DNA of 64,000 nucleotides from an uncultured Bacteroidota bacterium (GTDB lineage: Bacteria; Bacteroidota; Ignavibacteria; UBA10030; UBA8401). Made by a program: the position numbers and the translations under genes. Shown piece after piece: positions 8,095 to 52,895 of the stretch (position 1 is the first letter of the stretch; each line of letters starts with the position of its first letter). The stretch covers positions 45,496-109,495 of the forward strand of contig CAVYWA010000010.1 in NCBI GenBank assembly GCA_963772165.1, written 5' to 3'. A model generated the notes under the pieces. That model saw nothing but the letters and a program-made list of their open reading frames with translations, had not been told where the DNA came from and did no database searches.

Positions 8095-8096
8095 TT

Positions 8097-9565: not shown

Positions 9566-9751
9566 ATCAAGACGTATTGTTTATGAACAATTATTTCTGC
9601 CTGGATCATCACCGGACCGATGGCCGAGATTTCTGCAGCAGAACGTGGACGTAATGGAGTGCGATGAGAATAATAATGACAACAGGAATCATAAGGAATT
9701 TCCTCACCAACGGTAAAAACGTCCTTCCACTCAGCATAACAAATCTCCTTT

Positions 9752-10210: not shown

Positions 10211-10238
10211 CCTTCGTGGTTGTGATGATGTATAACGA

Positions 10239-10538
10239 TTACTTACACTGTTTGATCAACTTTTCCATCGCATCAATATGTTCTGAAAATGCTTTTCTTC
10301 CAGCATGAGTTGCCGAATACGTTGTCAGGGTTTTCTTTCCTACGAATTCTTTTTCAACTTTGACATATTTTTTCTTTTCAAGCGTTGCAATGTGCGTAGC
10401 GAGGTTTCCATCGGTAAGGGTCAACATCTTCTTCAGTGAATTAAAATCCATCGAATCATTCACGGTGAGAATCGACATCACTGTCAACCGGACGCGGTTG
10501 TCGAAAACTTTGTTCAGATTCTCAAAGATTTCTTTCAC
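10239..10538 (-). CDS. winged-helix transcriptional regulator (HTH_34-like)
   Basis: RVRLTVMSIL...SLKKMLTLTDGNLATHIATLEKKKYVKVEKEFVGKKTLTTYSATHAGRKAF matches HTH_34 pattern; 4-nt overlap with upstream membrane gene. Confidence 0.55.
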   Translation of the reverse strand: MKEIFENLNKVFDNRVRLTVMSILTVNDSMDFNSLKKMLTLTDGNLATHIATLEKKKYVKVEKEFVGKKTLTTYSATHAGRKAFSEHIDAMEKLIKQCK

Positions 10539-11137: not shown

Positions 11138-11355
11138 AGAAATTAATTCAATAAATGAAAGGTGAAATATTTTTTAAAAAGCACTTTCTACTACAAAGTT
11201 AATAACCACACCGTATAATGTCAAGAAGAATTTCTCATATTCGATGGAAATATTGAGAACAACCTTCTCCCCTCGGGGAATGACAGCCCGGAGCATTGCC
11301 GCGCAGCATCTTAATAATTCTATCAGCGCGCAAAATGCGAACAACCGAGCTTCCT

Positions 11356-30817: not shown

Positions 30818-30824
30818 TTGTCTA

Positions 30825-31550
30825 CTACCAGTCTTTTTCTACATTGCCCTTCACAACCTGTTTCTTGTGAAGTTGTTTCTGAACGTTCTTCTCGTCGTTC
30901 TTCAACGCATCGAGAATTCGTTCAGCATCCGCACGAGACATCTGTTTCTCCTGTTGCTGTTGCTGCTGCTTCTGCTGCTGTTGGTCTTGCTTTTGCTGAT
31001 CTTGTTTGTTTTGATTCTGCTTATCTTTGTCCTGCTGTTTCTTCTGCTGATCCTTCTGCTGGTTCTTATCGTTTTTGTTTTGCTTGTTCTGCTGTTGTTT
31101 CTGCTGCTGTTGCTGCTGCTTTAACATCTTCTCGGCGTAGGCGAGATTGTACTTCGTTTCTTCGTCGTCGGGGCTCAGCTTCAACGAGCGTTTGTAATCA
31201 TTGATGCTTTCCTGATAATTCTTTTGTTCAAGATGCACGTTGCCAATGTTGTGTTGAAGCTGGGCCTGAATTTTTGGCACGTTTGTCTTTGTAAGAGCGG
31301 TCTGGTAATTTTGCACCGCCTCATCATACCGCTGTTGTTTATACAATGCGTCGCCGAGGTCAAAGTATCCCTGCATCACCCGGTTGTCTTTCTCCAGCGA
31401 TTTCCGGTATTCAGCTTCGGCATCGGCAAATTTTTGATCTTTGTACAGGGCATTCCCGTCGCTGATGTGCGACCGGACGGTCTGGGCGGCGGCGAGCGAG
31501 CTCACGCATACAGCCAAAAGAAGCAATTTATTGAAAGACCCGGATTTCAT
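30825..31550 (-). CDS. batC: BatC (TPR protein) with long Q/K-rich low-complexity tail
   Basis: signal peptide + TPRs; C-terminal (QQQK)n encoded by CTG/CAG-rich tract. Confidence 0.65.
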   Translation of the reverse strand: MKSGSFNKLLLLAVCVSSLAAAQTVRSHISDGNALYKDQKFADAEAEYRKSLEKDNRVMQGYFDLGDALYKQQRYDEAVQNYQTALTKTNVPKIQAQLQHNIGNVHLEQKNYQESINDYKRSLKLSPDDEETKYNLAYAEKMLKQQQQQQKQQQNKQNKNDKNQQKDQQKKQQDKDKQNQNKQDQQKQDQQQQKQQQQQQEKQMSRADAERILDALKNDEKNVQKQLHKKQVVKGNVEKDW

Positions 31551-31595
31551 TGAAGCCCGTGCGAGAGTCGTGGTTCCAAGTTCATTGTTAATTGC

Positions 31596-32651
31596 TCATT
31601 GTTCTTTATCGACAGCTATTCCTCGAAATGGATTAATCTTTTCCAGCCATGGAATCTTTTTGTCGGACAAAAACACTTCGACCAGCAGCAACACCAGTGC
31701 TACTCCTATAAAATACTGAAATTGGTCCTCAAAATCAGTGAATTGTTTTGTCCCAAATTCAGTCTTCTGCAGCGCATTGACTTCCTTATAAATCGCATCC
31801 AGTTCATCCTGGTTGTTCGTTGCCCGAAAATACTTCCCGTTCCCGAGCGTCGCAATTTTTTCAAGCGTCGTTTCATCCAACTTTGTGAGAACAACGTTGC
31901 CGGCACGGTCCCGTTTGAAATCGACCTGATGCCCGTTTGCATCATAGATCGGAATCGGCGCGCCTGCGGGCGAACCCATGCCGATCGTATAAATGAGAAC
32001 ACCTTTTTTGCCCGCTTCTTCCGCCTTTGGAATGACGTCTCCCTGGTTATCCTCTCCGTCGGTGATGATGATGAGGACCTTTTTCGTCGGGGTGTCCCAA
32101 TTAAACGATTTCACCGCCTGATCCACCGCGGTCCCGATCGCTGTTCCCGGAGTCGGCACCGATTCGACATCGACGACATCTAAAAACAGACTGGCCGCGC
32201 TGTAATCTGTCGTCAACGGAAACTGCACGTAACTCTCGCCGGAGAAAATGATCAACCCGATCCTGTCGCCGCCAAGCCGGTCGATGAGATTGCCGATTTC
32301 ATATTTAGCTTTTGCGAGGCGGTTCGGTTTGACATCTTCCGCCTTCATCGAAAGAGAAACATCAAGCGCAATGAAAATATCGACCCCTTCCTGCTTCACT
32401 TCCTCCTGGCGTACGCCAAGCTGAGGGTTCGCCAGACCCACAACGATGAACGAGATTGCCGTCACCAACAACACAGACTTCATGACGCGTTTCACGCCGC
32501 TTGAATCCTCGGCAAGCCGCACAAACATCTCCGATGAGGAAAATTTTTTCCTTGCCTCTCTCCGCTTCCGGCCGACAAACCATAGGAATGCGGCGGTCAG
32601 CGGCACAAGCGCAAGCCAGTACAAATATTCAGGGTGAGCAAAACGGATCAT
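31596..32651 (-). CDS. batB: BatB (vWA domain, membrane-anchored)
   Basis: two N-terminal TMs then vWA: DIFIALDVSLSM (MIDAS DxSxS), TDGEDN. Confidence 0.75.
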   Translation of the reverse strand: MIRFAHPEYLYWLALVPLTAAFLWFVGRKRREARKKFSSSEMFVRLAEDSSGVKRVMKSVLLVTAISFIVVGLANPQLGVRQEEVKQEGVDIFIALDVSLSMKAEDVKPNRLAKAKYEIGNLIDRLGGDRIGLIIFSGESYVQFPLTTDYSAASLFLDVVDVESVPTPGTAIGTAVDQAVKSFNWDTPTKKVLIIITDGEDNQGDVIPKAEEAGKKGVLIYTIGMGSPAGAPIPIYDANGHQVDFKRDRAGNVVLTKLDETTLEKIATLGNGKYFRATNNQDELDAIYKEVNALQKTEFGTKQFTDFEDQFQYFIGVALVLLLVEVFLSDKKIPWLEKINPFRGIAVDKEQ

Positions 32652-32727
32652 GAGTTCTTAGTCCGGCGTCCGTGGTCCTTCATCTTTTGCATGTGTATTT
32701 CTCGACAATAACTCATTAACGGCATAG

Positions 32728-33720
32728 TTATGGCAGCTTTCGCAACCATGTTTTCGATATCCCGACATCAACCATCAGCAGAAACAACGCAAGCCCGGCG
32801 TAGGAGTAAAACAACTCCGTGAATCGTCGGTAAGAATGAACTTCAATCCGAGTCTTTTCAAGCCGGTCAATTTCCTTATAGATTTTCTCCAGCGTGGCAT
32901 TATCGGTGGCGCGAAAATATTTTCCATCCGTGATCTCTGCGATTTTCATCAGGGCATTCTCATCAAGGTCGACCGGCATCATTTGGTACCGGATCCCAAA
33001 CGGGGTTTGCGTAGGATATGGCGCCTCGCCGATCGTTCCCATGCCCACGGTGTAGACGCGAATTCCGTACGACGCAGCGATTTGCGCTGCCGTGGTCGGG
33101 TCGATTTCGCCGCGATTGTTCACGCCGTCGGTCAGCAGGATAATGACTTTGCTTTTTGACTTGCTGTCTTTCAAGCGGTTCACCGCGTTTGCGATGCCGA
33201 GGCCGATAGCAGTACCATCTTCAATCATTCCGGGTTTGACCGGCTTAAGGAGATTCTTTAGCACCGCATAATCGACGGTGAGAGGGCATTGCGTGAAACT
33301 TTCGGACGAAAAAATGACGAGCCCGATTCGGTCATTCGTCCGCCCGTCGATAAACTCCTGCGCTACGGCTTTCGCAGCTTCAACACGGTTCGGATGAAAA
33401 TCTTCAGCAATCATGCTGCCGGAAATGTCAAGTGCCAGAACGATATCGATCCCTTCACTGTAGACATTTTCTCCGTGTGAAGCCGACTGTGGACGGGCAA
33501 GCGCGAAGATTAACAGCGTGAGCGCAGCCATGCGAAGAATGAACGGCAGATGCCGGGCGCGTTCCTTCCGCGTGGAGGATGCTTCGGAAAAAGGCATAAG
33601 GCTCGAGAACCGCACATCGCTTTCACGGTATTTCTGGCGAAAGTAATACCATACCGACAGCGCGGGAATCAACAGCAGCAGGAAGAGGAACCCTTTGTTC
33701 GCAAAGGTCACATCAAACAT
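32728..33720 (-). CDS. batA: BatA (vWA domain, membrane-anchored)
   Basis: DIVLALDISGSM MIDAS, LLTDGVNN; start taken at internal MFDVTFANKGFLFLLL. Confidence 0.75.
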   Translation of the reverse strand: MFDVTFANKGFLFLLLLIPALSVWYYFRQKYRESDVRFSSLMPFSEASSTRKERARHLPFILRMAALTLLIFALARPQSASHGENVYSEGIDIVLALDISGSMIAEDFHPNRVEAAKAVAQEFIDGRTNDRIGLVIFSSESFTQCPLTVDYAVLKNLLKPVKPGMIEDGTAIGLGIANAVNRLKDSKSKSKVIILLTDGVNNRGEIDPTTAAQIAASYGIRVYTVGMGTIGEAPYPTQTPFGIRYQMMPVDLDENALMKIAEITDGKYFRATDNATLEKIYKEIDRLEKTRIEVHSYRRFTELFYSYAGLALFLLMVDVGISKTWLRKLP

Positions 33721-34675
33721 GCTCAGGCACCTCCTCTTGAGGCTTCGTCCGTTCGACAATGTCCAACGCTTGCGGAATGACGGCTTCGTTTTCCGAAGGA
33801 ACGGGCGTGTATTTTGCAAATTTTACAAGGTCGGCATTAATGAAGAATACTTCAATCAACTTTGTAACGTCCGCTGCCAAAGTAAACCTCCTGAGCTGGA
33901 CAAAAACTTCATCCGATGTCAGCTCCAGTGCCATAATTCCGTACCGTCCCTCAAAATACTGCCGGATAATTTCCGTCGCTTCCGAGTAAAAAGCTTTTAC
34001 GTCTCCCTGCTGCCAGAGTCGCTTTTCTTTCAATTCCTTCAAACTGATCATCGCCTGGATGTGCGGCAGAATCTTCGGCGCATTCTCTTCGACAATTTCT
34101 CCGGCTTTTCTTTTTCTCTTTCTATAGTAAGAGTATCCGCCATAGACAAGCGCTGCAATCGCAAGGAGAACTCCTGTATAAAGAGCGATCTCCTTCCATG
34201 TCAGCGGAACACCGAGCGGCGGTTTGATGTCTTTGATGGCCTTTGCAGTATCAACTTCAACCGTAGAAACCTGGACCGTCAGCGGATCTGATTGAACATA
34301 GTGCCGTGTTGTGTCGTTTGGATGCATGTATGCAATACGGATCGGCGGAATAACAAACGAACCGGAATCATACGCCGAAAGTGTGACCTTCCGGCCTTCC
34401 GTCACTGATCCGCCCGACCCTGCGGCTGGCACCGTGTCGAGGTGAACAATTTCAAAAACGCCGAGCGTGTCCTTCATCTCGCTCCACAGCACCTTCACCG
34501 AATCGGCATGCTTCACTTGCACCGTCAAGTTCAACCAGTCGCCGACCGTGATATGTGTCGAATCGACGCTCGCGGCGACCGAAACTTCCTGGCTGAAGAG
34601 ACACGTAGCGTGAACGGCAAAAAGAACGACAACAACCCCAATGTGCGTTAATACCTTCTTCAATTGAATTCTCAT
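33713..34675 (-). CDS. hypothetical membrane protein of the bat/moxR operon (DUF4381-like position)
   Basis: 320 aa, signal peptide + one internal TM; sits between DUF58 and batA as in Bacteroides bat operons. Confidence 0.5.
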   Translation of the reverse strand: MRIQLKKVLTHIGVVVVLFAVHATCLFSQEVSVAASVDSTHITVGDWLNLTVQVKHADSVKVLWSEMKDTLGVFEIVHLDTVPAAGSGGSVTEGRKVTLSAYDSGSFVIPPIRIAYMHPNDTTRHYVQSDPLTVQVSTVEVDTAKAIKDIKPPLGVPLTWKEIALYTGVLLAIAALVYGGYSYYRKRKRKAGEIVEENAPKILPHIQAMISLKELKEKRLWQQGDVKAFYSEATEIIRQYFEGRYGIMALELTSDEVFVQLRRFTLAADVTKLIEVFFINADLVKFAKYTPVPSENEAVIPQALDIVERTKPQEEVPEHV

Positions 34676-34704
34676 TACGTCCCGGCTTATTCCCTTTACA
34701 CTTG

Positions 34705-35580
34705 TTACAACCGCTGTTCTCGAATCTTAAAGAAATCAATCAGCGGCTTGATGTACGGATTTTGAATATGGATATCGATTCTGTCGACTTTGGTCGACAG
34801 GAATAATTTCTTTAACCGTTCTTCGTGCTGCTGCCAATAGTAACGAAACGCTTGCTGGATGTACATGTTGCTTGTGTCGACCCATCGTTCGCGTCCCGAT
34901 TCAGCGTCGTGCATTTTTACAAGGCCGATTCTCGGCATTTCCCGCTCGCGGGGATCCTGCATCGTAATGGCGATAACGTCGTGTTTTTTGCTCACGATGC
35001 GGAGCGCCGCGTCGTAGCCCTCGTCGATAAAGTCGGAGATCAAAAACGTTATCGAACGTTTCTTGATAACAGAATTCAAATACTGAAGCGCTCCTTTGAT
35101 GTCGGTGCCGCCCCCTTCGGGCGCAAACGAAAGGAGGTCGCGCACGATGCGGAGGATGTGTGCCTTCCCTTTTTTCGGCGGAATAAACTTTTCGATTCTG
35201 TCGGTGAACAGGATCAGCCCGACTTTGTCGTTGTTACGGATCGCCGAGAATGCGAGGACCGCGCAGATTTCGGTCGCGATTTCATTTTTCATCGCCGCAA
35301 CCGTCCCAAAATTTTCAGAGCGGCTCAGATCGACGAGCAGCATCACCGTTAACTCGCGCTCTTCCTCAAAAATTTTGATAAACGGATGATTGAACCGGGC
35401 CGAGACGTTCCAATCGATCGAGCGGATATCGTCTCCGTACTGATACTCGCGAACTTCGGAGAATTCCATGCCGCGCCCCTTAAAGACAGAGTGGTACTCG
35501 CCGGAGAAGACATGGTTCACCAGCCCCCGCGTCTTGATTTCAATCTGCCGTACTTTTTTAAGAAGTTCTTGTGTGGTCAT
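34705..35580 (-). CDS. DUF58 protein (MoxR partner, vWA-like)
   Basis: IDWNVSARFNHP... and LLVDLSRSENFG motifs; start taken at ATG 35578..35580. Confidence 0.75.
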   Translation of the reverse strand: MTTQELLKKVRQIEIKTRGLVNHVFSGEYHSVFKGRGMEFSEVREYQYGDDIRSIDWNVSARFNHPFIKIFEEERELTVMLLVDLSRSENFGTVAAMKNEIATEICAVLAFSAIRNNDKVGLILFTDRIEKFIPPKKGKAHILRIVRDLLSFAPEGGGTDIKGALQYLNSVIKKRSITFLISDFIDEGYDAALRIVSKKHDVIAITMQDPREREMPRIGLVKMHDAESGRERWVDTSNMYIQQAFRYYWQQHEERLKKLFLSTKVDRIDIHIQNPYIKPLIDFFKIREQRL

Positions 35581-35586
35581 TTTTTT

Positions 35587-35706
35587 CAATGAACAATCAT
35601 CAATGAACAATGATCAATGATCAATGGATGAAATGCTTTTCTTGTGTTGATTGTTCATTGATGATTGTTAATTGTTCATTGATGATTGTTAATTGTTCAT
35701 TGATCA
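35587..35706. repeat. imperfect long inverted repeat with internal 21-bp tandem repeat (ttgttcattgatgattgttaa x2) at moxR-DUF58 junction
   Basis: left arm 35587..35627 caatgaacaatcatcaatgaacaatgatcaatgatcaatgg; right arm 35648..35706; overlaps moxR stop codon. Confidence 0.6.
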
Positions 35707-36693
35707 TGGTACTTCGATTTTATTGAGAATCTCCTGCACAATATTCTCCGACGTCACTTCTTCCGCTTCCGCTTCGTATGTGACGGCAACGCGGTGGCGC
35801 AGCACGTCGAGGCTGACGGCGCGAACGTCTTCCGGGATCACATAGCCGCGCCGTTTGATAAAAGCGTATGCCTTTGCTCCCAGCGCAAGATTAATCGTTG
35901 CACGCGGCGACGCGCCGTAGCTGATTAATTGCGCGATGCCGGGAATCCCGTACTCCTTCGGGTTCCGTGTCGCAAAAACGATCTCGAGAATATACCGTTC
36001 AATTTTTTCGTCCATATAAATTTCCCCCATCACTCCCCGTGCCTTCATAATATCTTTCGGCGATATGACGGGTTTGACGTTCGGTTCTGTTCCGTTGACG
36101 TTTTGCCTCATGATTTGAAGCTCTTCTTCTTTCGTCGGGTAGTCGATCCTCACTTTGAGCATGAAACGATCGACCTGGGCTTCCGGCAGGGGATATGTCC
36201 CTTCCTGCTCGATCGGGTTTTGCGTCGCCAGCACAAGGAACGGTTCTTCAAGTTTGAACGTTTCTTCTCCTATGGTGACTTGCCGTTCCTGCATTGCTTC
36301 GAGCAACGCGCTCTGCACTTTTGCCGGTGAGCGGTTGATTTCATCGGCTAAAATGAAATTGGCAAAAATCGGCCCTTTCTTTGTTTGGAATTTCGAGTCC
36401 TTTTGATTGTAGATAAGGGTTCCGACCAGGTCGGCAGGGAGCAAATCGGGAGTAAACTGAATACGTTGGAATTTCGCCTGAATTGCTCCCGCGAGGGTTT
36501 TCACGGCCATCGTTTTCGCGAGACCGGGAACTCCTTCGAGAAGGATGTGCCCGTTGGCAAGCAAGCCGATGAGCAATCGCTCCACCATATTTTTCTGTCC
36601 AACAATAACTTTCCCGACTTCCAAAGTGAGCAGGTCGACAAACGCACTTTCGCGCTGGATCTTCTCGTTGATAGCCTTAATATCGTGCTCCAT
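35704..36693 (-). CDS. moxR: MoxR-family AAA+ ATPase
   Basis: Walker A GVPGLAKT, Walker B ILADEINR, 329 aa. Confidence 0.9.
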   Translation of the reverse strand: MEHDIKAINEKIQRESAFVDLLTLEVGKVIVGQKNMVERLLIGLLANGHILLEGVPGLAKTMAVKTLAGAIQAKFQRIQFTPDLLPADLVGTLIYNQKDSKFQTKKGPIFANFILADEINRSPAKVQSALLEAMQERQVTIGEETFKLEEPFLVLATQNPIEQEGTYPLPEAQVDRFMLKVRIDYPTKEEELQIMRQNVNGTEPNVKPVISPKDIMKARGVMGEIYMDEKIERYILEIVFATRNPKEYGIPGIAQLISYGASPRATINLALGAKAYAFIKRRGYVIPEDVRAVSLDVLRHRVAVTYEAEAEEVTSENIVQEILNKIEVP

Positions 36694-40700: not shown

Positions 40701-41062
40701 GACGGCAACAGCGGGGTCGCGATCCCCACCCGATTTTGGACATTTAATGCGGCAATATGAACGTTGGTGCCGACGTTAAAAGTGACGGTGATGCCCATCG
40801 ACCCGGTGTTGGTGTTTGTACTCTGCATGTACTCCATGCCCGGAGTACCATTGACCTGCTCTTCAATAGGAGTGGCTACCGTTTGTTCCACCGTTTGCGC
40901 ATCAGCGCCGGTATACTGTCCGCTAATTGAGACGGCGGGGGGGGTGATGTTCGGATATTGATCAACAGCCAGGTTCGCTATACAAATAATACCCGATATC
41001 ATTAACACGAGAGAGATAACGATAGCGGTAACCGGACGTTTGATAAATGTATTAGCGATCAT
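37786..41062 (-). CDS. RND efflux transporter (AcrB/MdtC-like), C-terminal ~60 aa displaced by a 1-nt indel in a CCC run near 37985
   Basis: 1039-aa ORF 37943..41062 with 12-TM RND architecture; ORF 37786..37989 encodes the expected C-terminal tail FPVLFVIITRLSYGKKELDYLQ in +1 frame. Confidence 0.8.
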
Positions 41063-44000
41063 TCCTGGTCAAGATTATAGATATCGCGCGACCTTTGTAA
41101 ATCATACTCCAATTCCGGGTCGATATTTTGTTGCTCCACTCTCTTCGTTTTTTCCATGAGCTCTTCATGATGAGCGTGGAGATAGTCGAGCTTTGCCTGG
41201 CCATACGACAGCCGTGTGATGATGACGAAAAGCACCGGCACGATGAAAATAGCAATTGTCGTAGCCGCCAGCATGCCGCCGAGAACGGTAAACCCGATAG
41301 TTCTGCGCGCTATCGCTCCGGCTCCTGTTGCAAACACCAACGGCAAGACACCAAGGATGAATGCCATAGAGGTCATCACGATAGGCCGCAAACGGAGCCG
41401 CACCGCTTCCATGGTGGATTGGATAAGCTCTTCCCCCCGGTCAACACGCACCTTTGCAAACTCTACGATCAGGATCGCGTTCTTGGCGGCCAGCCCGATG
41501 AGCGTGATGAGTCCTATTTGCGCATACACATTATTCGAGATGCTCGGCAGCAAAGTAAGCGTAAGGATGGCGCCAAAAGCCCCGATCGGTACCGCCAGCA
41601 AGACCGAGAAAGGAACGGACCAGCTTTCGTAAAGCGCCGCGAGAAAAAGAAAAACGAAGGTGATCGAGAAAACAAAAATATAGATCGTCGTTGAACCTTC
41701 CTTGATTTCTTCGTAGCTCAACCCCGAGTATTCGTAGTCATACCCCTCCGGCAACACCTTCTTCGCCACCTCTTTCAAGGCATTCAGTGTTTGAATACTG
41801 CTGTACCCCGGAGGAGATGCCCCCTCAATTTCTGCGGACCGAAAAATATTAAAATGCGATATCAGCGGTGCAGCTTCTACAGGCTCGTAACTAACCAGCG
41901 TTCCAAGGGGAACCATTGCTCCCGCCTGATTACGGACGTAATATTTGTCGATGTCCGATACTGTCGCACGGGCCATGGTATCTGCCTGAATCACCACATG
42001 AAAAGTTCGGTTGTATGTCGTAAAATCGTTGACATAAATACTCCCCATATACGCCTGGATCGTCGTGAAGACATCTGCAATATTCACTCCCAGCATTTCA
42101 CATTTTTCCCGATTGACTGTGAGGTTATAGTTGGGAGTGTGGGCAGAATAAAAACTGTAGGCATGAGAGATCGCCGGATTTTTATTTGCCTCACTAATAA
42201 AGTTATTAACGACTTTTTCAAATGCATGAATATCATCGTTGGTATTGCGCTGTTCTATCTGGAAGCTGAAACCGACCACCGACCCTACACCCGGAATTGG
42301 CGAAGGCTGAATGACCTGAACGTTGGCGTTGGCAAGACCGGCATCGATGATGCGCTGTTGCATGACATGGATGATACCCGGGACTTGCTCACTTGATTTG
42401 GAACGGTCATCCCATGGTTTGAGCTGGCAATAAATGGTACCGCAGTTTGAATTGGTTGCATTGGTCACAACATTCAAACCGGACAATGCTGCGTAATGCC
42501 CTTCGCCCGGAGTTGACGCTACCACCGCCATCAGCTTCGTCATCACTGCAACAGATTGGGCTGTAGAAGATGCTGGAGGCAATTGAAACGTTATGTAGAG
42601 GTTTCCATCGTCTTCGGAAGGGATGAATCCTGTTGATTTGTTTTGAAATAAGAATACCGCTCCGATACAAATGCAAAGAAGGAGGATGACAACATACTTC
42701 GATCCCTTGATGCTGCGTTTTACGCCCTCGGAGTATTTATCGGTGAGTTTATCGAACCAGCTGTTGAAAACAGCGAAAAACCGGCCTATTCCCCGGGGAG
42801 CCACGCCTTTCTGCGGCGGCTTGAGAAGAAGGCTGCAGAGTGCCGGCGTCAACGATAAAGCGATAAAAGCGGAAAGCATTACCGAGATCGCAATGGTGAT
42901 CGCGAACTGTTGATACAAGCGCCCTACGATTCCCGGTATAAATCCAACAGGGACGAAAACGGCTGCCAGGATCAATGCAATAGCTACAACGGGGGCCGAA
43001 ATGTCTTTCATCGCCTGGTACGTGGCCTCTTTTGCCGAGAGGTGATGTTCGTCCATATAATGCTCCACCGCTTCGACGACAATAATAGCGTCGTCCACCA
43101 CGATGCCGATCGCCAGAACAAAACCGAACATGGTGAGCGTGTTGATCGTAAAGCCGAGCGGGATGAAAAAACAGAACGTTCCCAAGATCGAGACGGGAAT
43201 TGCAAGTACAGGGATGAGCGTGGTGCGAAGGTTCTCAAGGAACAAATAGACGACGAGGGCGACAAGGGCCAGCGCGAGAAGAAGCGTGACAACAACCTCA
43301 CTCATGGAAACTCTGACAACCGTCACTGATTCAAAGGGGACACTGTAGTCAACGTCCGTGGGAAAAGAGTTTTTCAATTGGGCGAGTACTTATAAACACC
43401 CGTTGCCGTTTCAAGGGCATTGCTTCCCGGAGCCTGGTAAATGAGAAGACAGGAAGCCCGATGTCCATCCACAAATGAGTTGCTCGAAAAAGTGAACTTG
43501 CCCAGCTCTACCCTTGCGACGTCCTTCAGATAGACCAGCTCACCGGTTGACGGCTTTGTTTTGACGATAACATTTTCAAAATCCGACACCTTGCTCAAGC
43601 GTCCGTTGACAAGAATTCCTAATTCAAATGTCTGCGTCTTTTGTTGAGGCGGTACACCCGCTGAGCCCGCTGCCACCTGTACATTTTGCGCGTTCAACGC
43701 AGAAATAACATCCGTAGGAGTCAAACCGTAGCTTGCCATTTTTTCCGGATCCATCCAGATGCGCATACTGAAATCGTCCGTGAATCTACTGATGCTGCCG
43801 ACGCCGGGCACCCGGAGTAACGCATCCTGCACAAAGATATTCGTATAATTATCGAGGAACGTGATGTCATGTGTTCCCTGCGGTGCGAAGATGGCAACCA
43901 TCATGAGCATGCTGGGATTCAACGCCCGCACCGTAAGTCCGAGACGGCTCACTGCCGCAGGCAATAACGGCGTGGCAATGCTGACACGGTTTTGAACATC

Positions 44001-44318
44001 CAGCGTTGCAATATTGATGTCCGTTCCGATGTCAAACGTTACGTTCATCGACATCAAACCGTTATTGGTGTTATTGCTTTGCATGTACTCCATGCCCGGA
44101 GTACCGTTCACCTGCTGTTCGATGGGAGTGGCTACCGTTTGTTCAACGGTCAGCGCATCGGCACCCGTAAATTGACCGTTCACTTGAACGACGGGGGGCG
44201 TGATTTGAGGATACTGCTCGACAGGCGAGTTAAAGATACAGATGATACCGGTGATCACTAATATGATCGAGATAACGATTGCAGTGACCGGTCTTTTGAT
44301 AAAGATATTAGCGATCAT
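41059..44318 (-). pseudogene. second RND efflux transporter (MdtB-like paralogue) split by 1-nt deletion in an A run at ~43378
   Basis: ORFs 43374..44318 (N-terminal 314 aa) and 41059..43377 (772 aa) align end-to-end with the intact paralogue across ...ETATGVY/VLAQLKNSFPTDVDY. Confidence 0.7.
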
Positions 44319-45733: not shown

Positions 45734-47092
45734 TTAATAATGAGAAGGAATTTCGCCCATCGCTTTCTCCAAATCTATTTTGCTTGACAGAAGCTGGAAG
45801 AGGGCGTCGATATAACCTATTTCCGCGGTTATCAAGTTTGATTCGGCCACAAGGAGATTCAGATAAGCAACGACTCCCTGATTGTACTGGAGCGAGACAA
45901 CACGGTAAACATTTTGCGCCCGCGATTTATTATCATCTAACAATCGCAAGTTGTACAGGTTGCTTTTGTAGTTGGCCAACGCGGAAGTGTACTCTGTGTA
46001 AATCTGCGATTTCAAATTCATCTCTTCCCAATTCACATTCTCTTCCTCAAGCTCCGACCGTTGCACGTTTTCAATACGCGAAAAGCCGGTGAAGATGGGG
46101 AAATTTAGGGACACTCCAAAATATGAATAGGGGTACGTGGTTTTAAAAAGGGTTGAGGATGAGGGACTTTCGTATTCATAATAATAATCGTAAAAAACGG
46201 AGACAGTCGGAAGAAATGAAAGTTTGCTGTACAGCGTCTGCTGACGCTGCAGTTCTTTTACTGTCTGAAGCTGTTGATATTCGATCCGGTTCTCGTACCG
46301 TAATTGCCTCGTGGTGTCGGCATATATTTCCTTCATCATTTGCGTCGTATCAAACGTCACATTAAAATCTTTTTCCGGCGGATACCCCATGAGCTGCTTT
46401 AAGGCGGCGTACTCCGGTACGACGTTTTCAATTTGCTGCTTCAATTGCGCTTTTGAATTATTGAGAGTGATCACTGCTTGTTGATAATCCGTCTCATCGA
46501 CGATTCCGCCTACGTACTGGTGGTATGTATCGGTAATATTTCTGCCGAGACGCGCGGTATCTTCTTTCAGGATATTGATCTCCTCAAGCGTCAGTAAGAG
46601 GTTGTAGAATGTCTTGCTGACAGATGAGACAATAAATATTTTCACGCTGTCCGAAATTTGTTCGGCCTGCTTCGTCAACAGCGGAGCACTCGTTGCCGCA
46701 TAGAAAAGCTGGGGTTCGAATAGTGTTTGCGAAGCGGACAGCTGGGGGATGGCGGTGTTCGCCACGCCCGTGCGCGTTGGAATCGGCGCCCCTCCAGGCA
46801 GTGGATTTGGAGAGAGCGTCGTAGGCAATTGGCTGTAATGGACCATGTTGCCGGAGAGATTCAATTGGGGGAACCAACCGGACAAGTTAATAGCATTGGT
46901 CGCCTTAGCAATAGCCGTATTCACGAAGGACTGATTCACGCCGGGCTGGTATTGCAGCGCATAGCGAATGCACTGTTCGAGCGTAAAGAATTGGGTTGAA
47001 TCAGCTCTGTGATGATTTTGGGAATAGCTGCAAAGCGGTATAGTTAGAACAACGGCAATGAATAGAAAAAGTCGATTTATTTTATCCTTCAT
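45734..47092 (-). CDS. TolC-like outer membrane efflux protein
   Basis: two-repeat OEP architecture; start taken at MKDKINRLFLFIAVVLT signal peptide. Confidence 0.75.
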   Translation of the reverse strand: MKDKINRLFLFIAVVLTIPLCSYSQNHHRADSTQFFTLEQCIRYALQYQPGVNQSFVNTAIAKATNAINLSGWFPQLNLSGNMVHYSQLPTTLSPNPLPGGAPIPTRTGVANTAIPQLSASQTLFEPQLFYAATSAPLLTKQAEQISDSVKIFIVSSVSKTFYNLLLTLEEINILKEDTARLGRNITDTYHQYVGGIVDETDYQQAVITLNNSKAQLKQQIENVVPEYAALKQLMGYPPEKDFNVTFDTTQMMKEIYADTTRQLRYENRIEYQQLQTVKELQRQQTLYSKLSFLPTVSVFYDYYYEYESPSSSTLFKTTYPYSYFGVSLNFPIFTGFSRIENVQRSELEEENVNWEEMNLKSQIYTEYTSALANYKSNLYNLRLLDDNKSRAQNVYRVVSLQYNQGVVAYLNLLVAESNLITAEIGYIDALFQLLSSKIDLEKAMGEIPSHY

Positions 47093-47687
47093 TTCAATGA
47101 TATTTTTTGCACAAAAGTAATTTTCTGCTTTCCGATGCTTTTTACGCCAACCCGATGGCGGGCAATCGCTTGTACCTGTCTGTGATTTCACAACTGGTAT
47201 TTCCACGCATTTGTTATCCATTGTAAGAACACTTTAGACAAAAGATATTAAGAGATGGTTGAATGGTTGTGCTTGATAGCTCATATAAATTTTGCAGCTC
47301 CAGCATGTAGTGTTTTGGCTGCGCTCGCCAAGCGATAAAACTGTAAGTAAAGCGGCAAGATTGTGATAAGAGTTTTCGTAATGGGAATTAAAAAATGTTT
47401 GATGTAAATTGGGGGAATCGCGATAATGCAACCAACTTTGAAAGCTGGTACTCTCTTTCGACGAACCTCTAACCCCTCGGGCCGAGGCTCCCGTAAGGAA
47501 CCGAAGACCACGAAACAACCGAATATCCTGCCGATGCGAGATCCTGCATCGGTTGCCTTCCCAAAGAGTTCCTTTGGAAAGGCATCACTTCGCCATTTGC
47601 AGGATTGACCCACGGGCGTAAAGTATTGTCAATAATATAGCAAAAAAAAAATCTATCTCAAGCTCCCTCGAATTATGGCCGCGGGCT

Positions 47688-47793
47688 ACTTTGAAGAATA
47701 AAGTCATTGCTTCTCCCGCTCGAAGAGCGGGAGAAGCAATCCCCATTTAAAAAATGGATTGTGCCACTGTACGGGATCCCTTTGGGACTTCTG
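47688..47793. repeat. MITE/REP-like element copy E3 (inverted orientation)
   Basis: reverse complement reads gaagtcccaaagggatcccgtacagtggcacaatcc...ggggattgcttc...gcaatgactttattcttcaaag. Confidence 0.55.
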
Positions 47794-48020
47794 CAAAAAA
47801 CAACCAGGAACGACCTTTGATTTAAAATGATCCGCTACCCGCATTTTGGTAGTCCGTTTATTGCAGGCTATTGAATATCTTGTTAATTTCACTTGGCAAA
47901 TTTTTCAGGAAACATTTTTCTCCGGGTAGTGCCCAATCTTGCCGATCTTAATTGTTATAAGAAAATAAATCACAAAATGGTTAATGAATAAAATCAAAAC
48001 AACGTAGGAGGGTTCATATC

Positions 48021-48362
48021 ATGGAGGAATTTGCATTAATTATGAGACACGAAGATGGCCATAAAGTGGCTTCACCGGAACAAAGAGAAATTTGGATGAA
48101 GCAGACAACGGCCTGGATCGACGGTATTGTGGCACAAAACAAATTTAGCAGCGGCACAGGATTGCCTTTTGAAGATGCCAGGGTCGTAAGACCTAATAAT
48201 GTCGTTACGAATGGGCCTTTTGGAGGGAGCAAAGAAACAATTGGCGGATTCATTATTGTTAAGGCAAATTCCGTTGATGAAGCGGTTGAATTCACAAAGG
48301 GGTGCCCTGTGTTACAGGGAGAGGGAAATAGTGTTGAAGTACGAAGAATTGCAAAAAAATAA
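48021..48362 (+). CDS. YciI-like (DGPF/YCII-related) small protein
   Basis: VTNGPFGGSKETIGGFIIVKANSVDEAVEF...VEVRRI matches YCII-related fold motif. Confidence 0.7.
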   Translation: MEEFALIMRHEDGHKVASPEQREIWMKQTTAWIDGIVAQNKFSSGTGLPFEDARVVRPNNVVTNGPFGGSKETIGGFIIVKANSVDEAVEFTKGCPVLQGEGNSVEVRRIAKK

Positions 48363-48683
48363 ATTTTTGTAAAATATAAAAGCATCGGCAAAAAACAGAG
48401 GTTGCTTTTTCATGGATGATTGAGAACTGATTCCTCATTTATTCAGGACAAAATACAGAAACACAGCCCCCGTTCCTTTGCAGGCGTTTTGGGTTTGACC
48501 AAACAGGAATTGCCAGGTGGTGAATCAATTTGAGAAGACTGAATCAAAAACGGATGTCATGCCCATGAAAGTGGGCATCCCTTGCGTGGTAAAAAATGAA
48601 TATTTGGATTCTCGCCGAGTCCCTACGGGTCTATCGACCCGAAGGGTCGTTGACGAGTCTTCGACCCGCTTTCGCGAGACCTT

Positions 48684-48986
48684 ATGTTTAAAAATGAGTC
48701 ACTACCTAAAACTCCGATCACGGGAGACCTGAAATTTAAGAACATTTCGACGAGTTATGTTGAGCGGCAAAATCTTACCATGCGGATGAACATGAGGCGA
48801 TTTGAGCGGTTGACAAATGCGTTTTCAAAGAAGGTTAAGAATCACGCTCACGCCGTAGCTTTACACTTCATGTATTACAATTATTGCCGAATTCATAAGA
48901 CGTTAAGGGTGTCTCCGGCTATGGCGGCGGGTATCGAAAAGCATCTATGGTCTATTGAGGACTTGGCGAGATTGCTTCAGGCGTAA
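48684..48986 (+). pseudogene. IS1-like transposase remnant (C-terminal ~100 aa only)
   Basis: VERQNLTMRMNMRRFERLTNAFSKKVKNH...YNYCRIHKTLRVSPAMAAGIEKHLWSIEDL pattern parallels IS1 InsB C-terminus; no N-terminal DDE region present; degenerate MITE piece (48608..48685) abuts it. Confidence 0.55.
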
Positions 48987-49358
48987 GGGTAAGCTAAATT
49001 CTTTTATTGGAGAGTTCTTCAATATATTAGAAAACAAAGAGTACATTTTCTCATAAAGCAAATCTTTGCCAATCGTTTTTGCTAATAACTTTATCGATTT
49101 CGATTCATCAAGCCTTTTAAATATCCCTATCATAACAGCTTCAAAATAGATTCTTGGTTTATGGGATCTATTCTTTTTAGCAATGGACGTTACATTTAAT
49201 TTTAGTGCAAAGTTATTTTTGTTATCTTTTCTTAAATAAAGAGTCACGATTGCCGAAAACTCCACACCCAATTCCTCTCCCTTTGCTTCTCCTGGAAATT
49301 GTGGAAAAGCGCTTTTGAAACTCTCGACAAAATATCCCTGTAGTTTAAGCTGGTTCAT
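48945..49358 (-). CDS. SecB-like chaperone candidate (third gene of toxin-antitoxin-chaperone module)
   Basis: 137 aa; block-wise parallels to SecB by eye: LQGYFVESFKSAF ~ QIQRIYTKDISFEA; PRIYFEAVMIGIF ~ AFLCEVQQGGIF; KDLLYEKMYSLFSNILKNSPIKEFSLPL ~ [29 protein letters not shown]; 14-nt overlap with antitoxin gene. Confidence 0.5.
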   Translation of the reverse strand: MNQLKLQGYFVESFKSAFPQFPGEAKGEELGVEFSAIVTLYLRKDNKNNFALKLNVTSIAKKNRSHKPRIYFEAVMIGIFKRLDESKSIKLLAKTIGKDLLYEKMYSLFSNILKNSPIKEFSLPLRLKQSRQVLNRP

Positions 49359-49761
49359 ATTCTTTTTGGCTAACCTTGTTTTCTACTATTATTGTGGTGA
49401 TAATTGATTCTTTAAAATTCAATTTGAGATTTTTGCCCTTCTCAAAATTCTTGTAGATTTCAAAGTCTTGATATTCGTACTTGATGTATGGTTTAATGCC
49501 TAATGAAAATAAAATCTTAACTAACGTTCCGAGCCTTATATTTGCGCTTCCATCCAATACCTGTGTTACGTATGATCTCGAACAACCTAAAGTCTTGGCT
49601 AATTCTGCCCTACTGATAATCTTTTGATTCATTCTTTCTGCAATTATCTCTCTTATGTCTAATAATAATTTTTCCGTATAGAGAGACCAATCCTTTTCAA
49701 TAAATTCCATTGAATCATTAAACTCATCTTCAATTTGTTTGTTTTTAATAAATTGAGGCAT
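49345..49761 (-). CDS. HigA-like XRE-family antitoxin with aromatic-rich C-terminal extension (possible chaperone-addiction segment)
   Basis: HTH ISRAELAKTLGCSRSYVTQVLDGSANIRLGTLVKILFSLG; C-terminal KPYIKYEYQDFEIYKNF...; 138 aa vs ~95 aa typical. Confidence 0.75.
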   Translation of the reverse strand: MPQFIKNKQIEDEFNDSMEFIEKDWSLYTEKLLLDIREIIAERMNQKIISRAELAKTLGCSRSYVTQVLDGSANIRLGTLVKILFSLGIKPYIKYEYQDFEIYKNFEKGKNLKLNFKESIITTIIVENKVSQKEYEPA

Positions 49762-49765
49762 ACAA

Positions 49766-50137
49766 TTACTCCATTTCTTTAATACAGCCGTCCCTTAGCG
49801 TAATTGCCCTTTCTATCTCCTGAATATCGGTCTTATTTTTCTTTTTAACATATCCGTGGGTAATTATCGCATCATTTCCAAACATGAAGAAGAATAATCG
49901 AACGGGCTTCGGTTTAAGTTCATATAAATTACCGTGGCCCTTTAGTTTTTCCGAAATAGAAGTATTTTCAACGGGGAATTTTCGATCAGAGAGAAATTTT
50001 ATGTGAAGATTAATCTTGTGCTTCAATTTCTCGTTAATATGCGGAAAAAGCTCTTCTTGGTAAATAGGAATATCTTTTCCTATTCCCATCGCCCTCACCT
50101 TTCTTTCCTCTCCTGAATGTATGAGTATAATGCGCAC
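49766..50137 (-). CDS. Gp49-like (DUF891, RelE/HigB-superfamily) toxin
   Basis: LKGHGNLYELKPKPVRLFFFMFGNDAIITHGYVKKKNKTDIQEIERA matches phage Gp49-like toxin motif; toxin-first order as in HigBA. Confidence 0.75.
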   Translation of the reverse strand: MRIILIHSGEERKVRAMGIGKDIPIYQEELFPHINEKLKHKINLHIKFLSDRKFPVENTSISEKLKGHGNLYELKPKPVRLFFFMFGNDAIITHGYVKKKNKTDIQEIERAITLRDGCIKEME

Positions 50138-50369
50138 TACTAAGTTAAGTAATTAATTAACATTTGTCAATAAAAAAAATGAGAATTTTTCATGAATGTA
50201 TTAATGAAAACGATCTAAGTTACTTGTAGAATTCACATTTGTCAAGTTTTAATTTAATTAAGCCAAATTCATTTTTTTTAAGCCTTGTTTGGCCACGTCT
50301 TATGTTTAAAAATTCAAACTGAGACACTACCAATTGCCGGCCTACCTTTATTGATTGATTCTAAAATAG

Positions 50370-50377
50370 TATATTTG
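50370..50377 (+). promoter_or_regulatory. Bacteroidetes-type -7 promoter box TAtaTTTG upstream of beta-galactosidase
   Basis: matches TAnnTTTG consensus, 65 nt upstream of ATG at 50442. Confidence 0.3.
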
Positions 50378-50441
50378 CAGTGCTGTTTCGGTATCATTCA
50401 TGATGAACTAGGATGACAACGATCAATAAGGAAACCTGCCA

Positions 50442-52895
50442 ATGAAAACAACAACGCTCAAATGTAGGAACGCCCGCTTGGTAGTCTCTCTTGTCACTAT
50501 GGCTGTCCTTTTCTTAACCCCACACACCATGTACTCCGGAACCATCCGGCACACCGAGGATTTCAGTAAGAATTGGAAGTTTCATCTTGGCGATGTCACG
50601 AACGCACAGAAAATCAACCTCAACGATTCTGACTGGCGAATTCTCGACCTGCCGCACGACTGGAGCATCGAAGGAGAATTCAAGAAGGACAATCCGGCGA
50701 CGCCGGGCGGCGGAGCTTTGCCGGGAGGCGTCGGCTGGTATCGCAAAACATTTTCCATCGCGGAATCCGAAAATAAGAAATTAGCCTATGTGGAATTTGA
50801 TGGAGTGTACCGGAATAGCGAAGTGTGGATCAACGGCTATTACCTTGGCAAGCGGCCATACGGCTATAGCTCTTTTCAGTACCAGCTGACTCCGTTCCTG
50901 AAATACGGCAACGAACAAAATATTCTGGCAGTGAGAGTCGATAACTCACAGCAGCCTAATTCGCGCTGGTATTCCGGTTCGGGAATTTATCGCAACGTCC
51001 GGCTTATAACGACAGAAACAATTCATGTCGATCATTGGGGGACGTATATCACAACACCGGAAGTATCGGAGCAATCGGCGACAGTTTCCGTCCGCACAAA
51101 AGTGAAGAATAGCACCGAGAAAGAACAAGCCGTGAAGGTCAAAACAACTGTCCTGGATGAGGACGGCAATGCCGTGGCAGAGATAGAATCCGGAAATGCC
51201 GTACCGAAAAATTCCGTCTCTGAAGTCTCCCAGGAAATTGCGGTCAAGACCCCGCATCTCTGGACGCTTGAAAGCCCGCACCTATACAAGGCCGTGACGA
51301 CAATCAAATGCGATGGGAAGGTATGCGATGACTACGAAACGACGTTCGGCATTCGGACGTTTGTTTTCGATGCCGACAAAGGATTTTTCCTGAACGGAAA
51401 GCATGTGAAGGTCAACGGCGTCTGCGACCACCACGACCTTGGCTGTCTTGGTTCGGCGGTCAACAAACGCGCGCTCGAACGCCAGCTCGAGATTCTGAAA
51501 GCAATGGGGTGCAACGCCATCCGCACCTCGCATAACCCTCCAGCTCCAGAACTCCTCGATCTGTGCGACGCAATGGGCTTTATCGTTATGGATGAAGCGT
51601 TCGACATGTGGAAAAAGAAAAAAACCGATTTCGATTATTCCTTAGACTGGGACACGTGGCACAGGCAGGATCTCACAGATATGATCCTTCGCGACCGAAA
51701 TCATCCCAGCGTTTTCATCTGGAGCATCGGAAACGAAATCGTAGAACAGTGGGATATGCAGGACAGCAGCGGTACGACCATCGCACAAGAGCTTGCATCG
51801 CTTGTAAAATCTCTCGACTCGACCCGGCCTATTACCTCCGCATGCAATAATCCGGTTCCCCTCAATCCTCTTATCCGGTCGGGCGCTCTCGATCTCATCG
51901 GACACAACTACAGCATTGATAAGTATCCCGACTTTCCGAAAACTTTTCCCGGAAAAAAATTCATCGCAACCGAAACGGTTTCCGCTCTGGCTACCCGAGG
52001 CCACTATGACATGCCGTCGGACACCATCAGGCGATGGCCTATACGCTGGGACATCCCTTTCAATACCGGAAACCCTGACAACACATGTTCCGCGTACGAT
52101 AACTGCAGCGCTCCCTGGGGATCAACCCACGAAGAGACGTGGAAGATCATAAAGAAATATGATTTCCTTTCCGGCATGTTCATCTGGACCGGTTTTGATT
52201 ATCTCGGAGAGCCAACTCCCTACGGCTGGCCTTCACGCAGTTCCTACTTTGGCATCATCGATCTGGCCGGTTTTCCGAAAGACGTCTATTATATGTACCA
52301 AAGCGAATGGACGGACAAGCCGGTGCTGCATCTTTTCCCCCACTGGAATTGGAAAAAAGGAGACACGGTCGACGTGTGGGCGTACACCAATTGTCAAGAG
52401 GTGGAATTATTCCTGAACGGGCAATCACTGGGGACAAAGAAGAAAACCGGCGATGCTCTCCACGTCATGTGGAAAGTTCCTTTTGCACCGGGCACGTTGA
52501 AAGCCGTCGGGCGCAGCGGCGGGAAGGAGATTCTGACACAGGAAATCAAGACAGCCGGGGAACCGGCAAAGATCGTTTTGGAGGCAGATCGGAACGCAAT
52601 CTCTGCGGACGGTAAAGATCTTTCATTTGTCACGGTCAAAGTGCTGGATGAAGCCGGCACGCTCGTGCCGAATGCAGATAATCTCATTCACTTTAGTGTG
52701 TCAAGTGAAGGGAGAATTGTCGGAGTAGACAACGGCCTGCAGACGAGCCATGAATCGTTTAAGGCGCACGACCGGAGGGCATTCAACGGCCTCTGCCTCT
52801 CGGTGATTCAATCGACGGAAAAAGCCGGCCGCATTACGTTAGAAGCACGCTCGGACGGTTTGAAAGGGTCTTCGATTATCATTGACTCAAAATAA
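50442..52895 (+). CDS. beta-galactosidase, glycoside hydrolase family 2, secreted
   Basis: signal peptide; GH2 sugar-binding, Ig-like and TIM-barrel motifs (WSIGNE acid/base region, FIWTGFDYLGEP). Confidence 0.85.
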   Translation: MKTTTLKCRNARLVVSLVTMAVLFLTPHTMYSGTIRHTEDFSKNWKFHLGDVTNAQKINLNDSDWRILDLPHDWSIEGEFKKDNPATPGGGALPGGVGWYRKTFSIAESENKKLAYVEFDGVYRNSEVWINGYYLGKRPYGYSSFQYQLTPFLKYGNEQNILAVRVDNSQQPNSRWYSGSGIYRNVRLITTETIHVDHWGTYITTPEVSEQSATVSVRTKVKNSTEKEQAVKVKTTVLDEDGNAVAEIESGNAVPKNSVSEVSQEIAVKTPHLWTLESPHLYKAVTTIKCDGKVCDDYETTFGIRTFVFDADKGFFLNGKHVKVNGVCDHHDLGCLGSAVNKRALERQLEILKAMGCNAIRTSHNPPAPELLDLCDAMGFIVMDEAFDMWKKKKTDFDYSLDWDTWHRQDLTDMILRDRNHPSVFIWSIGNEIVEQWDMQDSSGTTIAQELASLVKSLDSTRPITSACNNPVPLNPLIRSGALDLIGHNYSIDKYPDFPKTFPGKKFIATETVSALATRGHYDMPSDTIRRWPIRWDIPFNTGNPDNTCSAYDNCSAPWGSTHEETWKIIKKYDFLSGMFIWTGFDYLGEPTPYGWPSRSSYFGIIDLAGFPKDVYYMYQSEWTDKPVLHLFPHWNWKKGDTVDVWAYTNCQEVELFLNGQSLGTKKKTGDALHVMWKVPFAPGTLKAVGRSGGKEILTQEIKTAGEPAKIVLEADRNAISADGKDLSFVTVKVLDEAGTLVPNADNLIHFSVSSEGRIVGVDNGLQTSHESFKAHDRRAFNGLCLSVIQSTEKAGRITLEARSDGLKGSSIIIDSK

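Follow-up and report, generated by a model that had tools for sequence, protein, structure and literature searches.

A three-gene module on the minus strand of the window, by which we mean the whole 64,000-nucleotide stretch of Bacteroidota DNA that was analysed, is very likely a tripartite toxin-antitoxin-chaperone (TAC) operon of the HigBAC type, and it probably sits inside a defective IS1-family element. Four hallmarks of a TAC are present at the locus, namely the gene order, a HigBA-type toxin-antitoxin (TA) pair, an antitoxin that is extended relative to its chaperone-less homologues, and a predicted SecB fold for the product of the third open reading frame (ORF3). HigBA, MqsRA, HicAB, and CmdTA were counted as TAC-forming TA families; HigBA is listed among such families in earlier work (PMC5105189). 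The original prediction had interpreted these genes as a TAC, and that interpretation is supported by the PF05973 match of the toxin, by the SecB-like predicted fold, and by the occurrence of ORF3 in all orthologous modules. TACs are rare but their mechanism is well understood: a chaperone of protein export has taken on the task of controlling a toxin, and recent work has shown that such systems sense phages. The features of the locus are as follows.

50311..50331, minus strand: copy A, GGTAGTGTCTCAGTTTGAATT, of the IS1-family terminal inverted repeat, bounding the conserved mobile unit on its upstream side
50215..50245, minus strand: distal, degenerate copy of the promoter/operator block, repeated directly over 31 nt at 77% identity with the proximal block, which lies 75 nt away
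50140..50170, minus strand: proximal promoter-like block TTGACA-N17-TAACTT with putative operator GTTAA-N8-TTAAC (50144-50161), conserved in L004 and L025
49766..50137, minus strand: toxin of the Gp49/HigB family (RelE superfamily), predicted ribosome-dependent mRNA endonuclease, 123 aa, GTG start; PF05973 and HigB profile matches
49345..49761, minus strand: antitoxin, HigA-like with an XRE helix-turn-helix (HTH), 138 aa, residues 1-91 being N-terminal helices and HTH; PF01381 and HigA 6af3_B matches
49348-49488, minus strand: coding region of the putative ChAD tail, antitoxin residues 92-138, beyond the HTH; AlphaFold2 pLDDT ~30
48945..49358, minus strand: ORF3, predicted SecB-like TAC chaperone, highly divergent and outside PF02556 detection, 137 aa
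48729..48986 (ORF 48684-48986), plus strand: 3' remnant of an IS1-family transposase gene; PF03400 DDE_Tnp_IS1
48665..48706, minus strand: second IS1-type inverted repeat, copy B, aligned to copy A; abuts and truncates the transposase remnant
47798..47839, minus strand: third IS1-type inverted repeat-like sequence, copy C, degenerate and a weaker match

The toxin and antitoxin genes are separated by 4 nt and the antitoxin gene overlaps ORF3 by 14 nt, so that the coordinates, strand, and spacing originally given for the three ORFs were all as claimed; the protein motifs quoted for them are present, and the toxin-antitoxin-chaperone order holds both in the window and across the relatives found. 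All three ORFs are intact. Between the window and its relative L003, pN was 0.10 to 0.14 and pS was 0.55 to 0.77 for all three genes, and since pN lies far below pS, all three are real genes under purifying selection. The triad forms a GC trough of 32 to 33% between flanks of 46 to 52%. The host is an uncultured Bacteroidota bacterium, with a transketolase that shares 75% identity with one Bacteroidota MAG and 70% with a Chitinophagaceae MAG. An Rfam search of positions 47000-50600 returned no known RNAs.

The original prediction had proposed a PF05973 search of the toxin as a check, and the match to this Gp49 model was clearly above the cutoff (39.1 versus 23.9 bits, E=8.1e-10). A profile built from the triad toxins matched Streptococcus pneumoniae HigB (6af3_A, E=2.2e-14) and the TAC toxin HigB1 of Mycobacterium tuberculosis (7nbu, 7awk; E=0.002). 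Residues E73, R80, K98, and K102 are invariant among the triad toxins, and the last three of these align with HigB1 R77, K95, and K99. HigB1 R77 and K95 are the proposed counterparts of RelE catalytic residues, and alanine at R77, K95, or K99 in each case abolishes toxicity (PMC9098466). One gene caller had started the toxin at an internal ATG (50089); this start was rejected and the GTG at 50137 is supported because relatives whose toxin gene begins with ATG conserve the protein sequence of the 16-residue N-terminal extension upstream of the internal ATG. The earlier description of the locus as a TAC with a Gp49-type toxin was thus correct as to the family, with both PF05973 and HigB1 matched. 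As a new combination it did not stand, since HigB1, the archetypal TAC toxin, itself belongs to PF05973: Gerdes lists it as a member (PMC11980606), and Sala et al. noted that the higBA pair of the M. tuberculosis TAC resembles gp49-gp48 of phage N15 (PMC3581621).

The XRE HTH reported for the second gene was confirmed by a match to PF01381 HTH_3 (29.9 bits against a cutoff of 23, E=5.6e-7); against the HigA model TIGR02607 the antitoxin scored 16.6 bits, under the curated cutoff of 47.7. Its top PDB relative was the 97-aa S. pneumoniae HigA (6af3_B), the partner chain in the PDB entry that the toxin profile matched. Because this alignment spans residues 6-89, about 47 residues are extra, in keeping with the original estimate of an antitoxin some 40 aa longer than a typical HigA. 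A two-gene relative on phage contig MT835942.1, consisting of a 120-aa Gp49 toxin followed by a 93-aa HTH antitoxin without a third gene, gives the same picture: its antitoxin stops 8 residues past the conserved LG[ILV]K, whereas the window antitoxin carries 47 residues past LGIKP.

The extension itself is compatible with published ChAD descriptions, including a predicted disorder. The AlphaFold2 model has N-terminal helices and an HTH core with a pLDDT of 71 to 85, and residues 92-138 had a pLDDT of ~30 without regular structure, although a low pLDDT says little about disorder when the alignment is as shallow as 8 sequences. Across all triads the tail is 45 to 48 aa long. The aromatic-rich character claimed for it was borne out (17% aromatic residues versus 8% in the core); the aromatic positions Y95, Y97, F106, and F116 are conserved and Y135 is invariant, and the most distant tail, that of L024, has only 2 aromatic residues. 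The tail also carries a beta-branched hydrophobic patch, IITTIIV, and usually ends in ...EYEPA. Between the window and L003 it is 72% identical, with a dN/dS of ~0.07. ChADs are known to be sequence-variable and 30 to 96 aa long (PMC5105189, 10.1101/2024.02.24.581848) and disordered with aromatic recognition motifs (10.1101/2024.02.24.581848), and their recognition goes through aromatic residues (PMC6377645). Antitoxin residues 27-120 align with PDC-M64B, a candidate family of PADLOC, and because that alignment reaches partly into the tail, a portion of the tail may occur in other HTH proteins.

With thresholds set permissively, ORF3 still had no match in Pfam, NCBIfam, PADLOC, or PHROGs, and it did not match PF02556 (SecB; gathering threshold 26 bits) even at E<=10. 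When ten members of the ORF3 family were scanned with PF02556, only P0024 matched, at 12.6 bits and E=0.13, under the 26-bit threshold. When the family's HMM profile was run against PDB sequences, SecB was not found and the matches were chance ones only (such as nucleoporin and SOD). Direct profile-profile comparison gave a different answer. For this a SecB profile was built from diverse plasmid-collection secB genes, because the homologues of Escherichia coli SecB were all orthologues at least 83% identical and too uniform for a profile. Using hhalign, the ORF3 family aligned to SecB over 112 to 113 collinear columns with a score of 31.6 to 32.2 (P 1.3-1.9e-4, probability 47 to 53%). Shuffled controls scored 11 on average (SD 2, maximum 24.4), and 0 of 400 reached the real score. 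The alignment pairs the G-I-F motif of strand 4 and the L-[FY] motif of helix 1, and the block-wise SecB resemblance first noticed by eye (IGIF/GGIF, LLY/LFPY) was thereby reproduced, while being invisible to the Pfam SecB model.

Comparison of the ORF3 product with the SecB fold, also suggested at the outset, led to the same conclusion. The AlphaFold2 model, made from a 6-sequence alignment, had a pLDDT of 71, and the predicted fold matched SecB and the TAC chaperone Rv1957, with nothing else comparable. Against the housekeeping SecB proteins of E. coli (1QYN) and Haemophilus influenzae (1FX3) the TM score was 0.53 to 0.57, at 8 to 18% sequence identity to SecB structures. ORF3 thus combines a predicted SecB fold with profile-level similarity to SecB, and its dN/dS between the window and L003 was ~0.15.

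Relatives of ORF3 are few. There were 5 among 5.8 billion protein clusters, and a family-profile search yielded 14 representatives among 1.84 billion proteins; peptide patterns found none in 185,579 GTDB species-representative genomes and none in JGI metagenome contigs, and ORF3 had no match among phages. The long antitoxin is just as uncommon, with 8 clusters, each of 137 to 139 aa. Every readable relative contig encodes a Gp49 toxin, an HTH protein of 133 to 141 aa, and an overlapping ORF3 homologue, and the triad is kept even where the ORF3 relatives are only 25 to 29% identical (P0024/L024, P0021, P0019/L025). ORF3, whose absence from orthologous modules the original prediction had named as a point against itself, was present in all of those found. 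The neighbouring genes vary from contig to contig: GH2/YCII/TolC in the window, and mdh/moxR-bat, gamma-glutamyltranspeptidase/TonB receptor, HflX/histidine kinase, Memo/DPP-IV, or VapBC in others. In several relatives the toxin is disrupted with the antitoxin and chaperone kept, by a frameshift in L010 and a split in L008, and these resemble the toxin-less "AC" systems described by Sala et al. (PMC3581621). Searches of plasmids by tblastn with the antitoxin and toxin gave unrelated HTH regulators or no match, and no two-gene relative close to the triad family was found, the two-gene comparators being ~32 to 34% identical.

Identity to the window was calculated separately for the toxin, antitoxin core, tail, and ORF3 in six relatives, and is listed in that order in percent.

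L003: 76 / 82 / 72 / 73
L001: 67 / 70 / 48 / 59
L010: 65 / 68 / 47 / 58
L004: 57 / 59 / 19 / 33
L025: 62 / 58 / 26 / 29
L024: 38 / 36 / 25 / 29

For L004 and L025, identity to the window is still ~60% in the toxin and core and has fallen to 19 to 33% in both the tail and ORF3. Such co-divergence is the pattern expected of a specific, co-evolving ChAD-chaperone pair, and offers indirect support, from six comparisons, for the suggestion that the tail may bind ORF3. Pairs of this kind have been demonstrated by experiment in other TACs (PMC5105189).

Directly upstream of the toxin lies the proximal promoter-like block (50140..50170), which carries TTGACA-N4-GTTAA-N8-TTAAC and ends 2 nt before the toxin start codon. 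It is 89 to 93% identical in L004 and L025, the coding DNA of which is ~66% identical, and the inverted half-sites GTTAA/TTAAC are conserved in 6 of 6 triads, including L024 with its differing spacer. The block is presumably an antitoxin operator overlapping a sigma-70-like promoter (TTGACA-N17-TAACTT). The distal copy is present in L003 as well. Because the start codon is 4 nt past the -10-like hexamer, the toxin mRNA may be leaderless. A DNA probe of the operator/promoter gave one chance match in metagenomes and none in viral contigs.

The surroundings of the triad point to the IS1 family, for which we looked for an IS1-type DDE transposase together with terminal inverted repeats of the GGTARTG... 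type. The transposase remnant runs towards the chaperone gene, the two sharing 42 nt at their 3' ends, and it scored just under the PF03400 cutoff (22.5 against 24.1 bits, E=1.6e-4); a longer version in L001 is 55 to 58% identical to annotated IS1-family transposases. The remnant follows ORF3 in L001 and L003 too, and ~100 nt of it are left in L010. The GGTAGTGTCTCAGTTTGAATT motif of copy A is the right end of intact IS1-family elements on plasmids of Acidiphilium (L110) and Mesorhizobium (L111), and the right repeats have the same orientation relative to the transposase in all three. What differs is the distance. The outer end of the Acidiphilium repeat, GGTAATGTCTCAGTTTGAAATT, is 9 nt past the transposase stop and the Mesorhizobium repeat, GGTAGTGGGTCAGTTTGAAATT, is 280 nt past it; in the window, copy A is 1,345 nt past the stop with the TAC in between. 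Allowing up to 3 mismatches, copy A occurs only once in the window, where chance would give 0 occurrences, and L003 and L010/L011 become homologous to the window at 50328-50334, the outer edge of the repeat. No repeat-like sequence was seen between the transposase stop and ORF3 on reading the window sequence. Copies A and B can be aligned across 44 nt if a deletion of 7 nt is allowed for, and because this second copy truncates the transposase at 48706, the element in the window is defective. An Acidiphilium RES-Xre TA was considered as a second case of TA cargo and rejected, the right end there leaving the TA outside the IS.

Most simply, the TAC can be read as cargo of a now-defective IS1-family element. 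Neither a left end nor an intact transposase was found in any TAC-carrying copy, and since no intact IS1-TAC element was found, this cargo model is probable rather than proven. The position of the module between a transposase remnant and a terminal inverted repeat would account for its low GC content and varied genomic locations. The original prediction of an islet with IS and repeat debris was right that such remains are present and imprecise in that the module probably lies inside the defective element.

If the locus works like M. tuberculosis HigBA1-Rv1957 and E. coli HigBAC, its SecB-like protein would bind the antitoxin tail (ChAD), probably as a tetramer. Without the chaperone the tail would leave the antitoxin aggregation-prone or unstable, and only the chaperone-bound antitoxin would neutralise the toxin and repress the operon through the promoter-overlapping GTTAA-N8-TTAAC. 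Titration of the chaperone by unfolded clients or a phage protein would then cause the antitoxin to fail, and the freed toxin would cleave ribosome-bound mRNA, leading to growth arrest. It is from these analogues that we infer functional chaperone addiction at the locus.

An ordinary two-component HigBA, co-transcribed with a SecB-fold accessory protein that has some role other than antitoxin stabilisation, is an unlikely alternative. ORF3 might then, for example, be dedicated to sensing phages or stress and act on the toxin, neutralise the toxin alongside the antitoxin, or serve as a holdase of general use, and the tail might have another role such as toxin wrapping or oligomerisation. The conservation of the tail (72% identity and a dN/dS of ~0.07 against L003) would suit any binding function, and the PDC-M64B alignment allows part of the tail to occur in other HTH proteins. 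Against this, a SecB-fold gene directly 3' of an extended HigA, MqsA, or HicB has been a TAC in every characterised case (PMC5105189, PMC3581621, 10.1101/2024.02.24.581848), the tail and ORF3 co-diverge, and the antitoxin and chaperone are kept together where the toxin has decayed.

Considerably less probable is that ORF3 is an orphan IS passenger unrelated to SecB, its fold match being an artefact of AlphaFold2 or of convergence on a simple four-strand-plus-helix topology; the lack of matches in Pfam, NCBIfam, PADLOC, and PHROGs, the shallow alignment with its pLDDT of 71, and the 8 to 18% identity to SecB structures are what speak for it. The least credible reading makes the three genes a decayed, non-functional remnant in IS debris. 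Consistent with it are the defective element with its truncated transposase, the disrupted toxins of L010 and L008, and a window toxin whose GTG start directly follows the promoter-like block; yet the three window ORFs are intact with pN far below pS against relatives, and both the operator and the residues aligned to catalytic ones are conserved. A TAC operon remains our preferred reading of the locus.

A broader and tentative scenario, judged less likely than not, is that an IS1-family IS captured a complete TAC between its transposase and right repeat and moved it among chromosomal sites of uncultured Bacteroidota, and that the chaperone represents a previously unrecognised SecB-like clade missed by PF02556. 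If so, such systems escape TAC surveys that rely on PF02556 or PSI-BLAST, and the TAC would serve the IS as an addiction or defence module or would owe its spread to the IS, in line with proposals for Tn3-family TA pairs. An IS1-family element around the module would be an uncomplicated means by which TACs could spread. The main text of a 2013 TAC survey does not mention Bacteroidota (PMC3581621), although a few Pfam-positive SecB sequences are known in that phylum (PMC4361572). Because the ORF3 clade escapes the SecB Pfam model, TAC censuses seeded by SecB sequence similarity probably undercount, notably in Bacteroidota. With tail and chaperone co-diverging and toxin and antitoxin core conserved, the family is also a compact natural data set for ChAD-chaperone specificity. 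The known TAC mechanism is unchanged by the locus.

Several known systems share parts of this arrangement. TA modules ride as passengers in Tn3-family transposons (PMC7157771), where, as in the window, the TA lies inside a transposable element between transposase and terminal repeat; here the carrier is of the IS1 family, the cargo is a tripartite TAC, and all copies observed are of a defective element. The two-component gp49/HigB-HigA systems (S. pneumoniae HigBA 6AF3, phage N15 gp49-gp48) have a homologous toxin and antitoxin core in the same toxin-first order, but their antitoxins, of 93 to 97 aa, end just past the HTH and there is no third gene, whereas the window antitoxin is extended and followed by ORF3. 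Housekeeping SecB (PF02556) shares with ORF3 a predicted fold and a collinear profile alignment; it is 155 aa long as opposed to 137 aa, ORF3 lacks its acidic C-terminal tail, and a genuine secB sits in the context grxC-secB-gpsA rather than in a TA operon.

Compared with M. tuberculosis HigB1 (Rv1955)-HigA1 (Rv1956)-SecB-TA (Rv1957), ORF3 is only ~8 to 13% identical to Rv1957, and the window tail has no sequence similarity to the M. tuberculosis ChAD, which is expected since one TAC's ChAD does not resemble another's in sequence (PMC5105189). The M. tuberculosis host belongs to the Actinobacteria, and the window module lies within an IS1-family element in a Bacteroidota host. HigBAC of E. coli NT1F31 (Mets et al., 10.1101/2024.02.24.581848) shares with the window a toxin of HigB type and a SecB-like chaperone, HigC, and its HigA bears a disordered ChAD patterned with aromatic residues, to which the tail predicted here may correspond. 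It is an antiphage TAC in which the chaperone is the sensor and phage proteins compete with the ChAD (10.1101/2024.02.24.581848), and it is a plausible functional model for the window locus. Its ChAD is 96 aa long with four aromatic motifs ~30 residues apart, against a window tail of 47 aa with about five conserved aromatic positions, and it is prophage-borne where the window module is IS-borne. Overall, the architecture of the window module, the family of its toxin, the extension of its antitoxin, and the predicted fold of its chaperone match the HigBA-SecB TAC class (M. tuberculosis HigBA1-Rv1957, Geobacter lovleyi HigBA-SecB, E. coli HigBAC), and the module differs from that class in three ways: a chaperone divergent beyond PF02556, a Bacteroidota host, and an IS1-family carrier.

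The toxin-antitoxin-chaperone (TAC) unit, and only that unit, lies in a sharp trough of base composition, with a GC content of 32 to 33% at 49100-50300 versus 46 to 52% in the flanking genes, which fits recent horizontal acquisition. On the contig of a relative, L010, the neighbours of the inserted TAC unit are an mdh-like gene and a moxR-batA aerotolerance operon (region 7134-12420), and in the window genome a BatD gene (within 28964-36693) is located about 20 kb from the TAC. The surroundings of the unit carry an IS1-family terminal inverted repeat (GGTAGTG.CTCA...TTTTAAA), which occurs three times in the window, always on the minus strand and in direct orientation:

50311-50331, minus strand, copy A, at the boundary of the TAC unit
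48665-48706, minus strand, copy B, truncating the remnant of an IS1-family transposase gene
47798-47839, minus strand, copy C, degenerate

The three copies suggest IS1-family remnants that are nested or arranged in tandem. A YCII-domain gene (48021-48362, plus strand; PF03795, E=7e-11) is flanked by copies B and C and, because of that position, may be part of another IS-associated fragment. At 47706-47740, in a gene-poor stretch with a TolC-like gene on one side and the YCII gene on the other, two perfectly complementary 16-bp arms (ATTGCTTCTCCCGCTC/GAGCGGGAGAAGCAAT) enclose a 3-nt loop; Rfam gave no match for this inverted repeat.

Intact IS1-family elements are present on two plasmids. The element on the Acidiphilium multivorum plasmid NZ_CP041717.1 (1542-2380) is of the same subfamily as that in the window. 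It has inserted next to a RES-Xre toxin-antitoxin pair, with its right end reaching into the 3' end of the RES toxin gene. The convergent geometry is common to both loci, but the toxin-antitoxin pair on the plasmid lies outside the IS. On the Mesorhizobium loti plasmid CP050295.1, 280 nt (1526-1806) separate the transposase stop codon from the right terminal repeat, so additional DNA is tolerated in this subfamily at the place where the window TAC sits.

Elsewhere in the window, the coding sequence of an AcrB-type RND transporter is divided between two minus-strand ORFs with a 4-nt overlap: 43374-44318, whose 314-aa product matches profile positions 1-301, and 41059-43377, whose 772-aa product matches 306-1020. 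A frameshift, a pseudogene or an error of assembly could each account for the break.

Upstream of the toxin gene, a promoter-like block is present twice:

50140-50170, block with inverted half-sites GTTAA-N8-TTAAC (putative operator, 50144-50161)
50215-50245, degenerate duplicate, 75 nt upstream

Across distant triads the block has diverged less than the coding sequence. Since the toxin start codon falls only 4 nt past its -10-like hexamer, the toxin mRNA may be leaderless, judging from this spacing.

Among the PADLOC profiles, the antitoxin (49345-49761) matched PDC-M64B, a candidate defence family, over residues 27-120 (E=5e-7); the match spans most of the profile and extends into the antitoxin tail. 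Neither the toxin nor the SecB-like ORF matched the other PDC-M64 components in PADLOC. In several relatives the toxin gene has decayed, with the antitoxin and SecB-like genes intact:

L010, 5624-5944, toxin C-terminus frameshifted
L008, 218-608, toxin split into two ORFs
L025, 2279-2611, toxin N-terminal extension lost
L026, no toxin called

With this gene content, these relatives resemble the published toxin-less 'AC' systems.
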